A DNA stretch of 62,727 nucleotides, the filler included, from an uncultured bacterium (GTDB taxonomy: Bacteria; DAOPZR01), in assembly GCA_964637655.1 (NCBI GenBank). It is 30 parts of 30 records of this genome, joined end to end, with 100 filler letters (N's around TTAATTAATTAA, not from the genome) between each part and the next. Parts side by side here need not be neighbours in the genome. Positions count along the whole stretch, not along the records: positions 37,132 to 39,076 come from CAZWUZ010000456.1; 29 more parts are not named here. One strand, given 5' to 3'. A model generated the notes under the pieces. It saw only the letters and a program-made list of their open reading frames with translations, was not told the DNA's origin and made no database searches. Shown here piece by piece: positions 37,032 to 41,106 of the stretch. The position numbers were made by a program, and so were the translations under genes. Numbering within the stretch: the first letter of the stretch is position 1; each line of letters opens with the position of its first letter.

Positions 37032-37281
37032 NNNNNNNNNNNNNNNNNNNNNNNNNNNNNNNNNNNNNNNNNNNNTTAATTAATTAANNNNNNNNNNNNN
37101 NNNNNNNNNNNNNNNNNNNNNNNNNNNNNNNCGGCCGATTCGGGGCCGGCCTTTCCGCTCCGAACCATGGCAGTCTGCGACAGTATATCACATCCAGTCG
37201 CCCGCACTGCAGGTAATATATCTCGCCGGCCCGCCCACGGCGCAGCTCCGCCGTATTGCGGCCGTCCGCCTCCGGCGGAAC

Positions 37282-37466
37282 CACGGACAGACGGACAAAC
37301 GCGGACCGGCGCGGACAGGGGAGTCAGGATTGCGTGCCGCCCGAACGGCATTCCCAGGTGCACTTGGAGGCACACGCAAGTTCCTGGGGACGCCTAGCCG
37401 GAACCACGAGGTTCCCCAGGATACGCCGATGTCCTGTGGGTCCTGTAGGTCCTGTAGGTCCTGTCC
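37282..37466. repeat. Short tandem repeats (CGGAC x4; GTCCTGT(A/G)G x3-4)
   Basis: CACGGACAGACGGACAAACGCGGACCGGCGCGGAC at about 37282. GTCCTGTGGGTCCTGTAGGTCCTGTAGGTCCTGT at about 37431. Confidence 0.55.
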
Positions 37467-37654
37467 AGGCACGCGACAAGACGAACGTTCTTGTGTGCCG
37501 CCTGTTAAGTCCACTCAAAGCCGGCCGTCCACTCCCGGCCCGGCCCCGCACGCTCCGCGCCCTCTGCGCGGGCTCGACGTCTCTGCGCTGCGCCGCAGGC
37601 GCCCGGCTCCGCACACCTGGCCCCGCGCGCTTGGGTTTCTATGAGAGGCAAAGT

Positions 37655-37897
37655 CAATGGGATTTTTCGCCTAGGGCGAAATCCGCTTCCCACGGACGCC
37701 TGTTCACCTCGTTTCTATCCGCACTCTAGTCCGGCCACGTGGCCTGGTGCATGTTAAGATCCGTCGTCGGGCTGCCACTTGCGCGTCGGACTCGATGCGG
37801 TCCAAACCCAAGCTCGCAGTCACCGGGACGGGGTGTGAGCGCCGTGGGGGACGGACGCGCCGTTCGGCGAACTCCCCCTGAAATCCCCTTCCGCCCG
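37655..37897 (-). ncRNA. Putative bridge/seek RNA of the IS1111 element (boundaries approximate)
   Basis: Structured region downstream of the transposase with segments matching both target flanks and the donor junction. Confidence 0.7.
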
Positions 37898-38962
37898 TCA
37901 GAAGGCGGGTTCCGCGGCGGGGGCGAAGCGCGCGGCCAGCGCGTCGTCGTACGGCCGTCCGGACTTCAGCATCGCGAGCATGACGACGGCGAGCTTGCGC
38001 GCCACCGCCGTCTTCGCCTTGCGCCTGGCAACCTTCCCGCCGCGGGCGCAGATCCGCTCCCCGTAGCGCTTGAGCGCGCTGTCCGGAGACGACGCCCGCA
38101 GGATGTAGTTGGCGGCGTTGACGAGGAGCGTGCGGACCATCGTGCCGCCCGTCTTCGTGATGCGCTTCGGGGCGTCGCCGTCGCCCGACTGGTCCTGGCC
38201 CGGCGTGAGGCCGAAGTAGCATCCCGCGTCGCGTGCGCGCCCGAAGCCCTTCGCGTCGGGGACGTGCGCGACGTAGGCGCTGCTCGTGATCTCGCCCACG
38301 CCGGGGACGGTGCGCAGCAGCTCCGACTCCTTCCCGAAGTGCCTGCGCGAGTAGTCGCGGACCAGTTCGTCGTACTTCCGGATCGTTTCGCGGAGGAGCT
38401 CGAGCTGCGCGAGCAGGGGCTCGAACTTCCACGCCTCCCGCGCGGGGATCCCGTCCCTGGCGGCGGAGAGGAAGCACCCGGCGTCGCATTTCCGCAGGAA
38501 GACGCCGCAGGCCTTGCACATCCCGCGCACGCTGTTCACGATCCGCGTGCGCTGCGCCACGGCGATCTCGCGCAGCTCGAGCAGCTGGACCATCGCGTGG
38601 CGCTCGTCGTCCCGGAGCGCGACGGGGTGGAAGAGCTCGCGGTCGGCCCGCGCCAGCCTCGCGATCATCAGCGCGTCGTTCCCGTCGTTCTTCCGCTTGC
38701 TCGTCCAGATCGCGGCCAGCTTCCGGGCGTTGCCGACGACGGTGTCGCACCCGCACTTCGCCGAGAGTGCGCTGATCCAGCGGCAGCAGAGCCCGGTCTC
38801 CATCGCGACGGTGGCCCCGGCGTGCTGCCGGAAGAACGCCTCGAGCGCCTCCGGCGTGTTGGCGACCTCGGACCGGAACAGCACCTTGCCCGCCCTGTCG
38901 AGCGCGCAGACGACGTGCTTCCTGTTCCCCAGATCCATTCCGATTGTGATATCATTCTCCAT
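37898..38962 (-). CDS. IS110 family DEDD transposase/recombinase
   Basis: IGMDLG, VAMETG, KNDGNDA, TVPGVG, YFGLTPGQDQSG (catalytic Ser), AVARKL. RBS AGGAG before ATG 38962. Confidence 0.95.
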   Translation of the reverse strand: MENDITIGMDLGNRKHVVCALDRAGKVLFRSEVANTPEALEAFFRQHAGATVAMETGLCCRWISALSAKCGCDTVVGNARKLAAIWTSKRKNDGNDALMIARLARADRELFHPVALRDDERHAMVQLLELREIAVAQRTRIVNSVRGMCKACGVFLRKCDAGCFLSAARDGIPAREAWKFEPLLAQLELLRETIRKYDELVRDYSRRHFGKESELLRTVPGVGEITSSAYVAHVPDAKGFGRARDAGCYFGLTPGQDQSGDGDAPKRITKTGGTMVRTLLVNAANYILRASSPDSALKRYGERICARGGKVARRKAKTAVARKLAVVMLAMLKSGRPYDDALAARFAPAAEPAF

Positions 38963-39227
38963 GGCAGTTCTCCTGTTTGCAGGCCTTGATTCGTTGTGTG
39001 AACAAATCATAGCACCTCTTCGGGTGAGCTGCCTCTCATTTTACTTGCGCGCCGGCCCCCGGCGCGCGTGGTCAAGNNNNNNNNNNNNNNNNNNNNNNNN
39101 NNNNNNNNNNNNNNNNNNNNTTAATTAATTAANNNNNNNNNNNNNNNNNNNNNNNNNNNNNNNNNNNNNNNNNNNNAGCCACCGACCCCGACACCTGGTG
39201 CGGGTGAAGTGCCGGGGGAGGGGAGGG

Positions 39228-40733
39228 TCAGCGGATGGCGCGGCGGAGCTTGGCGGGGAGGATGCCGAGTTCCTCACGGTACTTGCAGACCGTGCGGCGG
39301 GCGATCTGCAGCCCCTCCTGGGTGAGGCGGCGGTGAATCTCGGAATCGGTGAGCGGGTGCGCGCTGTCCTCCTGCTCGATCATCGCGCGCAGGCGGGTCT
39401 GCACCGCGCGTGACGAGGTGGCCGGCCCGCTTCCCGCGGTGGGAATCTCGCCGGAGAAGAGCAGGCGCATGCGCACCAGCCCGCGCGGGATCTGCATGTA
39501 CTTGTTCGAGGTGACGCGGCTGACGGTCGACTCGCTCATGCCGATTGTCTCGGCGACATCGCGCAGCGTCAGCGGCTTGAGCGCGTGGAACCCCTGTTCG
39601 ATGAACTCGTACTGCGCGTTGACCAGCGTGCGCGCGACGCGGTAGATGGTGTGGTTGCGCTGGTAGATGCTGCGGATGACCCACTCCGCGTCCTCGATCT
39701 TTTTCTTGAGGTAGTCGCGCGTCGCTTTTTGCGTCTCCGCCGCCTGGAAGATCTGCTGGTAGCGGGCGCTGATGCGCAGGTGCGGCAGGTGCTCATCGTT
39801 GACCACCACCTCGTACTGCTGGTCGACCTTGCGCACGATGACGTCGGGGGTGACGTACTGCGCCTCGTCGCTGGCGAAGGTCGCCCCCGGGTAGGGTTGC
39901 AGCTGCTGCAGCCGCTCGTGCGCCTGCTGTACGCGGTGCAGGTGGATGCCGAGCTGGCGCGACACTTTCGTGAAACGCCGCCCGACGAGGTCTTCGAGGC
40001 AGCACTCGACGATGCGGTAGGTCCACGAGTCCTGCTCGCCGAGCAGCGCCAGCTGGATGAGGAAGCATTCGCGCGTGTCGCGCGCCCCCACGCCGGCGGG
40101 CTCGAACGACTGGATGAGGCGCAGCAGGCGCAGCGCCTGCGCCTCGTCGCAGCCGCAGCCGCGGGCGAGTTCCGGCAGTGAGCCGCGGTAGTAGCCGTCG
40201 CTGTCGATCTCCGAGATCAGCGCCGCGGCAATGGCCTGCTCGGGCGGCGGGAGGCGCAGCAGCAGCAGCTGCTGCTGCAGGTGCTCGTCGAGCGTCGCCC
40301 CGGCGATGGGGACGTTCTCGATCAGGCGGTCCTCGTCGTCCGCGGGGGCCGGGGCGCTGCCGCCGAAGCCGAGGTCCCGCCCGTCGTCGTAGCGGTCCCA
40401 CTCGATGCTGCTTCGTTCCGCCTCTGCCTCGGCAGGCGCGTCCGGATCGGCGTCAGGGGTGACCTGTTCGGGGGGGCGCAGTTCCGGGGTGAGGGTGTCC
40501 GCCGCCGGGGTGGTCTCGGCCGCGGCCGGGTCGGCCGCTTCGGGATCGTCGGTGATGGTGAGGTCCTCGAGCACCGGGTTCTGCTGCAGTTCCTGCTGCA
40601 GCCACTGCGCCAGCTCCAGCGTCTGCATCTGCAGCACCTGCAGCGCCTGCTGCATCTGCTGCGTCATCATCAGCCGCTGCTCGAGCCGCTGTTCGACGTG
40701 CTGCGACAGGTTGAGCCGGTAGTCGGTGGCCAT
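39228..40733 (-). CDS. rpoN: RNA polymerase sigma-54 factor
   Basis: Q-rich region I, FEPAGVGAR, ESTVSRVTSNKY, RpoN-box ARRTVCKYRE. Confidence 0.95.
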   Translation of the reverse strand: MATDYRLNLSQHVEQRLEQRLMMTQQMQQALQVLQMQTLELAQWLQQELQQNPVLEDLTITDDPEAADPAAAETTPAADTLTPELRPPEQVTPDADPDAPAEAEAERSSIEWDRYDDGRDLGFGGSAPAPADDEDRLIENVPIAGATLDEHLQQQLLLLRLPPPEQAIAAALISEIDSDGYYRGSLPELARGCGCDEAQALRLLRLIQSFEPAGVGARDTRECFLIQLALLGEQDSWTYRIVECCLEDLVGRRFTKVSRQLGIHLHRVQQAHERLQQLQPYPGATFASDEAQYVTPDVIVRKVDQQYEVVVNDEHLPHLRISARYQQIFQAAETQKATRDYLKKKIEDAEWVIRSIYQRNHTIYRVARTLVNAQYEFIEQGFHALKPLTLRDVAETIGMSESTVSRVTSNKYMQIPRGLVRMRLLFSGEIPTAGSGPATSSRAVQTRLRAMIEQEDSAHPLTDSEIHRRLTQEGLQIARRTVCKYREELGILPAKLRRAIR

Positions 40734-40735
40734 GC

Positions 40736-41106
40736 TCAGTCGAGGGAGAAGCGCTCGCCGGGAACCGCCCTGAACACAATCTCGGGGACCGCGTCCGACT
40801 CGATCACGATGCGGATGAAGAGGTCCCGCATCCGGTTCCTGAGACGGGGCGGGAGGACGAGCGCGAACGGCTCGGCCGTCTTCACGACGATCTTGTTGAC
40901 CGCGCCGTCGACGAGCTTCACCCCGCCGTCCGCGACCGTGTGCGTCACGAGGCGGTAGCGCCCCGGGGGCAGGGCCGCGTAGCGTTCCTCGGCGCCCTGC
41001 CGCCGGTGCCAAGCGGATTCCAGCCCCAGGAGGCGCGTCTCGTGCTGAATGTCGCGCTCATGGAGGTAACTCGAATGGTAATTGAGGAAAATGTTCCGAG
41101 TATTTT
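40736..41106 (-). CDS. Hypothetical protein fragment (possibly chimeric) ending GERFSLD
   Basis: Open frame upstream of rpoN. Not LptB-like except for the last residues. Confidence 0.35.

Follow-up and report, generated by a model that had tools for sequence, protein, structure and literature searches.

The insertion sequence at window positions 37638 to 39044 (minus strand; 1407 bp, excluding the core copy) is, on the strength of its sequence and that of its relatives, very probably an apparently intact element of the IS1111 group (IS110 family) that carries its own two-loop bridge/seek RNA. By "the window" we mean the whole stretch of DNA analyzed, 62,727 nucleotides from an uncultured bacterium. 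What is new here is the orthologue; the mechanism is already known, since bridge RNAs have been predicted in 93.0% of catalogued IS1111 elements, where they lie in the right end (Durrant et al. 2024, PMC11208160), and seekRNAs have been shown for four IS1111 members, ISEc11, ISPa11, ISKpn4, and ISPst6 (Siddiquee et al. 2024, PMC11187229), both papers being cited throughout from excerpts. The element leaves the understanding of that mechanism unchanged; what it contributes is an orthologue with clear limits, from an uncultured bacterium, in which the core is AA and the guides measure about 9 to 11 nt. Bridge/seekRNA recombinases are under development as programmable tools for DNA insertion, excision, and inversion. 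From an alignment of some 80 relatives of the element one can read off the target guides, the right-end guide, and a handshake dinucleotide, which yields testable rules for reprogramming recombinases of the IS1111 type.

The window is made up of about 30 contigs of about 2 kb each, separated by linkers (N44, TTAATTAATTAA, N44). The contig with the element occupies positions 37132 to 39076 (1945 bp), and all features described below lie on the minus strand. Every sequence string and coordinate in the preliminary description of this DNA, which had proposed an IS1111-type element with a readable guide RNA, was found in the sequence. The limits of the element were set by comparison with a copy in another genome (locus L001, on a 46-kb contig), which is 95% identical and aligns to positions 31 to 1441 of the contig only; because this homology covers exactly the element and the flanks on either side are wholly unlike, the ends are fixed. 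The dinucleotide AA, at 39045 to 39046 (left junction) and 37636 to 37637 (right junction), is the sole sequence common to both junctions. These junctions, together with an empty-site joint in which 2 letters are ambiguous at the core, show insertion at a 2-nt core with no longer target duplication. The left end consists of a 5-nt extension, GTAAA (39040 to 39044; identical in 24 related loci with core AA), and a 10-nt subterminal inverted repeat (39030 to 39039) that is 100% complementary to its partner near the right end (37641 to 37650), from which a 3-nt extension, AGA (37638 to 37640), leads to the right junction. Outside the element, the left target flank (39047 to 39060) and the right target flank (37615 to 37635) form the 5' and 3' arms, respectively, of a GC-rich target hairpin in the predicted fold. 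Within the element, 260 nt of noncoding sequence lie downstream of the transposase gene (37897 to 37638), compared with 82 nt upstream (39044 to 38963).

The transposase gene (37898 to 38962) is an open frame of 354 amino acids followed by a stop codon; AGGAG precedes its ATG by 7 nt. Its product has the two domains of the IS110 family, an N-terminal RuvC-like DEDD domain (PF01548; E = 9.1e-22) and a C-terminal PF02371 domain (E = 3.3e-18), and scores 206.8 bits against the NCBIfam model NF033542, "IS110 family RNA-guided transposase" (cut-off, 140). An alignment of 50 relatives (59 to 98% identity) shows no variation at D10, E55, D93, D96, or S259. The four acidic residues were assigned as the catalytic D, E, D, and D by position and invariance, independently of any alignment to IS621, and S259, the serine of the G-P----SG motif, aligned to the ESG-motif serine of IS621 (chain position 243 by count). 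We take this IS621 serine to be the catalytic S241 (PMC11208158, in excerpt), which presumes that residue numbers in the deposited chain are shifted by 2. An AlphaFold model of the transposase (mean pLDDT, 86.1) had as its best structural matches IS621 (8wt9, 8wt6) and ISCro4 (9t56), with E values of 5e-14 to 8e-13 and TM scores of 0.56 to 0.67 over about 350 columns; identity to IS621 in the structural alignment was 21 to 22%. The modeled DEDD/Ser recombinase has the bridge-recombinase fold of IS621 and ISCro4. Structural knowledge of the IS1111 group is thin, and the solved structures matched are those of the IS110-group elements IS621 and ISCro4 only.

Close relatives of the transposase (55 to 98% identity) are common in metagenomes, nearly all on contigs of 1 to 5 kb; those with a name are annotated merely as "transposase" or "IS110 family transposase," and most have none. 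In a plasmid collection no relative exceeded 34.5% identity, and no named insertion sequence could be assigned. The named IS1111-group relative there was the IS4321/IS5075 family of enterobacterial plasmids ("IS110-like element IS4321 family transposase"), which aligned over residues 1 to 289 and differs from the window element in sharing just 26 to 27% identity (tblastn; E = 1e-7). An ISKpn4-family protein gave a partial match only in the same tblastn search, and phmmer similarity to IS621 was limited to residues 193 to 341.

Assignment to the IS1111 group, as the preliminary description had it, is supported by the subterminal repeats, the downstream noncoding region, and the order of the guides. 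The repeats, set in from the ends by 5 nt on the left and 3 nt on the right, are perfect over 10 bp, within the 7- to 17-bp range given for IS1111 subterminal inverted repeats (PMC11208160, in excerpt). In the RNA, the stretch that matches the top strand of the target (37815 to 37805) lies 5' of the stretch that matches the bottom strand (37787 to 37779), which is the order reported for IS1111 seekRNAs in the excerpted text of PMC11187229. As far as the excerpts describe them, ISEc11, ISPa11, ISKpn4, and ISPst6 share with the window element a DEDD transposase, subterminal repeats with short extensions, a long downstream noncoding region, a top- and then a bottom-strand RNA match that overlap at the insertion point, and an element-specific target. 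The window element differs from these four in its transposase length (354 amino acids, slightly over the 330-to-350 range given in PMC11187229), in having a GC-rich palindrome as its target and AA as its core, and in being known from sequence alone. With IS621 (PMC11208160 and PMC11208158, both in excerpt) it shares a two-loop RNA in which each loop reads both strands around a 2-nt core, handshake-like bases, a circle-junction promoter, the protein fold, and a serine aligned to the ESG serine. Unlike in IS621, the RNA lies 3' of the gene rather than 5', the guide order is reversed, the core is AA rather than CT, 10-bp subterminal repeats are present, and the outer stem encloses both modules. 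A search of the literature from 2025 on for IS1111 bridge recombinase orthologs found nothing. The lineage may already figure in the supplementary lists of predicted bridge RNAs and orthologues that accompany PMC11208160 and PMC11187229.

The preliminary description had placed a two-loop RNA 3' of the transposase, and comparison with relatives bears this out. We collected 83 related loci, 3 from species-representative genomes and 80 from metagenomes. In a first set of 39 sequences, the constant motifs GACTGCG and GTGGCAGCCCGA bracket a hypervariable segment of 28 to 40 nt. RNAalifold, applied to 36 distinct sequences, returned a conserved fold with two internal loops. Its elements are an outer stem of 4 bp, a long stem whose internal loop holds a small hairpin, and a second loop around a GCAC/GUGC hairpin. 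In a MAFFT alignment (A4), 99.0% of cells were paired, 6 of 25 pairs showed changes on both sides, and the covariation score was reached by none of 500 shuffles; in a model-fitted alignment (A5), which is biased towards structure, 17 of the 25 pairs showed such two-sided changes. A covariance model built from the relatives (R1; 132 positions) was run over the window and all 83 loci. As the check proposed in the preliminary description would have it, the model matched the window once, over its full length, at 37703 to 37837 (127.4 bits; E = 1.5e-32), defining an RNA core of 135 nt. The other 80 of its 81 matches fell in 79 of the 83 loci, each of them 3' of the gene and on the transposase strand. 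Three of the four loci with no match (L036, L040, and L082) stop inside the gene or 19 nt past it, and the fourth (L064) has downstream sequence. One locus, L022, holds two complete bridge RNAs in tandem, with differing target guides.

In the window, the outer stem pairs CACC (37832 to 37835) with GGUG (37705 to 37708), and 2 of its 4 pairs changed on both sides among 15 sequences. The stem of the target loop pairs 37816 to 37831 with 37761 to 37775; it is invariant in A4 and has two-sided changes at 9 of 13 pairs in A5. Within the target loop, a GGAC...GTCC hairpin (37788 to 37803) has covarying pairs, and the donor-loop hairpin closed by GCAC/GUGC occupies 37721 to 37750. The stems that had been read by eye as GGAC/GTCC, CTGC/GCAG, and GCAC/GTGC are therefore all present and part of the family consensus structure. 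Downstream of the RNA core lies a further conserved hairpin (37660 to 37684; 6 consensus pairs, 1 with a two-sided change among 15 sequences), which also appears in the single-sequence fold. In this fold, the outer 4-bp stem encloses two modules, a target module formed by the long stem and its loop and a donor-binding loop.

Both strands of the target loop match the DNA around the insertion. Guide 1, the 5' strand (37805 to 37815), is complementary to the top strand of the core and right flank, with 9 contiguous matches (37813 to 37805) and a single mismatch (A37814). Guide 2, the 3' strand (37779 to 37787), is identical to the top strand of the left flank and core at 8 of 9 positions, 7 of them contiguous, with a single mismatch at A37786. 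The preliminary description had drawn both matches 2 nt longer. Its match at 37817 to 37805 holds in that 12 of 13 positions are complementary to the core and right flank (13 of 14 with an extra T), and its match at 37789 to 37779 holds in that 10 of 11 positions are identical to the left flank and core. The outer GC (37817 to 37816) and CC (37789 to 37788) are scaffold, however, belonging to the conserved CUGC/GCAG and GGAC/GUCC stems, so the guides proper are 37815 to 37805 and 37787 to 37779. Guide 1 would pair with the top strand across the AA core and the right half of the target, and guide 2 with the bottom strand across the left half and the core.

A GC-rich, low-complexity flank could yield such matches by chance, with no functional RNA behind them, and we weighed this reading for the window alone by counting core-anchored matches in 20,000 dinucleotide shuffles of the 3' noncoding region. 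A guide 2 match of at least 7 was reached in 631 of the 20,000 shuffles, so that guide 2 by itself is not compelling in a GC-rich target, and no Rfam 15 family fits the region (best E values of 3.8 to 9.2, to unrelated families). Against chance, a guide 1 match of at least 9 was reached in just 13 of the 20,000 shuffles, and matches of at least 7 and at least 6 occurred jointly in 29. It is covariation across the family that settles the question. For each element we compared the longest run common to a guide and its own flank with the runs obtained against the flanks of other elements with the same core. For guide 1, the mean cognate run was 6.79 (67 distinct pairs), compared with a noncognate mean of 3.52 (2,300 pairs); for guide 2, the corresponding means were 7.24 (58 pairs) and 4.67 (1,000 pairs). 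None of 2,000 permutations reached the cognate mean for either guide. The guide/flank covariation check that had been suggested, run on the 83 related loci, is thus strongly positive for both target guides. Given these permutation tests and the structural covariation in A4 and A5, the chance reading is refuted as far as sequence analysis reaches, and we regard it as extremely improbable.

Some guide/flank pairs match poorly. The guide 1 run was below 6 in 17 of 67 pairs and the guide 2 run below 7 in 22 of 58; locus L017 is mismatched on both sides, and L008, L053, and L018 are mismatched on one. L018 has the left flank of L002, and L053 has the right flank of L003. Since several of the poorly matching flanks belong to another guide set, their sequences suggest chimeric assembly across a repeat, and we tentatively attribute the poor pairs to chimeric metagenome contigs or to paralogous sites. 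Between the window element and its close copy at L001 there are 66 differences over 1407 positions, 14 of which fall within the 37-nt target loop. Such a pattern would be expected had a recent common ancestor been retargeted.

The second loop relates to the ends of the element. Its 3' strand (37709 to 37720) contains AUAGAAA (37718 to 37712), which, as the preliminary description had recognized, repeats the final 5 nt of the right end together with the core and would pair with the bottom strand there. Across the family, 73 of 76 loci have a 7-mer here that reproduces their own right end and core exactly, through four sequence states, so that covariation is strongly positive for the right-end donor guide as well. 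The variation runs mostly between a few clades, three of them the main ones: the window's clade has left extension GTAAA and right end plus core ATAGA + AA; a clade of about 47% protein identity has GTAAG and ATAGA + AG; and a clade of about 39% protein identity has ATGGG, ATGGA, or ATGAG and ATGGA + AG. The right-end states, and with them the 73 of 76 agreements, therefore reflect few independent events. The 5' strand, AUCUUAACAU (37751 to 37760), was scanned against both strands at 15 offsets in 30 types. In the best register its complement lies on the top strand and spans the junction, reaching from the final base of the right end through base 7 of the left end, with a cognate score of 6.17 of 10, compared with 5.10 for noncognate ends (30 types), a weak signal. 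The stretch ATCTTAACAT, put forward earlier as a weaker match to the left end, does correspond to this strand; its left-end pairing amounts to just 6 of 10 in the best family register. Contiguous pairing of the 5' strand with the left end was sought in the window and is absent, leaving a discontiguous register through which the strand would pair loosely with the core and left end. Weak pairing of this kind has a precedent, since right-donor pairing in IS621 is described as discontiguous in the excerpted text of Durrant et al. (PMC11208160). In the target loop, the GU that follows the core (37777 to 37778) equals the first two left-end bases, and 61 of 68 loci show the corresponding agreement with left-end bases 1 and 2, the dinucleotide being GT, AT, or TA. 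These bases resemble the handshake guides of IS621 (PMC11208158, in excerpt), and we propose that they may act in a similar way.

The weak left-end register also bears on how much of the RNA acts as a guide. It could be that the RNA directs target choice only, as a short seekRNA comprising the first loop, with the second loop serving as a protein-binding scaffold and the ends being read by the transposase through the subterminal repeats. The poor pairing of the donor 5' strand with the left end would fit such a division of labor, as would the RNAs of 82 to 96 nt holding target matches that Siddiquee et al. report (PMC11187229, in excerpt) and the small number of independent events behind the right-end agreement. 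Set against it, the donor 7-mer tracks the right end plus core through all four states with 3 exceptions in 76, the unbiased scan (both strands, 15 offsets) gives both strands of the second loop the geometry of the target loop, and donor pairing is reported for IS1111 examples, alongside the discontiguous pairing in IS621, in the excerpts of PMC11208160. On balance we think it unlikely that the RNA reads the target alone, and we favor an RNA in which both loops act as guides. Among the matches listed in a literature search on the IS1111 donor-binding loop, none concerned the present lineage by title or abstract.

If both loops guide, they need not do so with equal strictness. We tentatively suggest, as a reading that we would put well below even chances, that this IS1111-type lineage of gut, rumen, and soil may treat its two ends differently: a strict 7-nt RNA guide would read the right end, and the left would be read mainly through the subterminal repeat, helped by loose discontiguous pairing and the 2-nt handshake in the target loop. 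As part of the same tentative reading, the tandem RNAs of L022 might give a single element a natural means of addressing two sites.

By analogy with IS621 and ISEc11, we infer that the RNA is transcribed and bound by the transposase and that the present copy is active, in a cycle that would begin with excision of the element as a circle. A consensus scan of the integrated copy for sigma-70-like promoters and intrinsic terminators found neither. Joining the right end to the left would bring together TTGACT (37652 to 37657), as a -35 half, and TAAAAT (39038 to 39043), as a -10 half formed into a promoter only at the circle junction; the joined sequence has a 17-nt spacer and matches the consensus at 10 of 12 positions. 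A junction-spanning promoter matching at least 8 of 12 positions is found in 62 of the 66 loci with both ends, a count made with no shuffle control. A junction promoter is reported for IS621 (PMC11208160), and a review states that both families have them, each source being cited from an excerpt. In the window element, such a promoter would drive transcription of the transposase gene, and read-through would yield the RNA. A complex of recombinase and RNA would then join the circle junction to a matching site, with strand exchange at AA and no target duplication. In a metatranscriptome run (X15), which may contain DNA, the whole element is covered by contigs.

The target, rebuilt by removing the element, is a GC-rich imperfect palindrome whose predicted hairpin has a 7-nt loop, the core lying at the 5' edge of that loop (-38.4 kcal/mol, compared with -30.6 ± 3.5 for shuffled sequence; reached by 12 of 500 shuffles). 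From its sequence, it looks like a repeated (REP-like) element. A search of the 62.7-kb window that allowed up to 3 mismatches turned up no further copy of the rebuilt 20-nt target. Removal of the element at the core had been noted to rebuild the target, and one contig agrees: among four public runs placed on the contig, all as assembled contigs, DNA-run contig X1 joins 37635 to 39045, skipping 1409 bases, as an exact empty site with 2 ambiguous letters, although its short side of 23 letters makes it weak evidence. In the same run as X1, a loose end at 37637 runs on into the right-hand flank. Junction sequence, fold, and empty-site joint together confirm the AA/TT core and GC-rich target of the preliminary description. 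Joints with 9 to 16 replaced letters were dropped as candidate empty sites; they resemble other copies of a target-like repeat.

These data also speak to the possibility that the copy in the window is an immobile, fixed relic whose guide/flank match merely records a past insertion. It is a single copy on a 1945-bp contig (in the window, the left end occurs once and R1 matches once; the genome of L001 likewise has one copy), each guide has one mismatch, and the consensus scan revealed no internal promoter, all of which a relic would explain. A relic would be less expected to retain an open reading frame with all catalytic residues, an RNA that fits the family model over its full length, and intact ends with both halves of the junction promoter. 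Moreover, depth over the element in the four runs was 45 to 116, compared with 15 to 31 over the distal flank (2.5 to 7 times), contigs break near the element ends as expected of a multicopy repeat, and one run holds the empty site. We therefore consider a relic quite improbable and continue to read the copy as an apparently intact element. Of 24 public runs listed, 20 contain the stretch or part of it, and 16 hold at least half of the sampled words; these runs come from 15 studies and are mostly labeled pig gut metagenome. The host is probably a pig-gut bacterium.

One of the 83 related transposase loci, L022, carries two bridge RNAs, both complete, arranged in tandem within its 3' non-coding region (L022:2590-2725 and L022:2854-2987). 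The target guides, that is, the target-loop strands that match DNA on either side of the core dinucleotide, differ between the two copies. In copy 1, a guide matches the left flank over a run of 9, and in copy 2, the first guide matches 9/10 of a stretch overlapping the right end.

In the most distant clade (~39% protein identity), the interval separating the bridge RNA from the right end contains a further long inverted repeat, conserved and ~130 nt in size, as exemplified by the stretches L063:1709-1900 and L071:1750-1940. A conserved hairpin also occurs in the window (37660-37684, minus strand), with the bridge RNA core on one side and the -35 box on the other. Among 15 sequences, this hairpin includes one pair with changes on both sides; no U run was present directly after it.

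The window itself consists of ~30 short contigs in a chain, joined by 29 linkers of N44, TTAATTAATTAA, and N44 (for example, at 37032-37131 and 39077-39176, on either side of the contig bearing the element). Adjoining "genes" in the window are therefore not genomic neighbors of the element. The next contig carries a long reading frame at 39228-41012 on the minus strand (594 aa as listed), whose C-terminal sequence suggests that it may encode a sigma-54 (RpoN) protein.

On the element's own contig, the flank contains a short tandem repeat with a 9-nt, GGACCTACA-like unit (37431-37466, minus strand), one frame of which encodes Gly-Pro-Thr. Across the four public sequencing runs aligned to this contig, depth reached a peak at this repeat, and further copies of the motif were present on loose contig ends. 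The depth peak and the extra copies on loose ends indicate that the repeat is common to other places or organisms. At position 37605, ~30 nt from the right end, 14 flank bases were missing from the element-bearing contig in three of the four runs; this gap represents either a variant of the flank or a second insertion within a paralogous repeat.

Elements of the core-AG clade were also observed within repeats. Several of them (L030, L033, L038, and L034) are inserted within short tandem repeats with a unit of 7 to 9 nt, and these repeats extend past the insertion on either side. Given such placement, a single guide set would have many successive sites.
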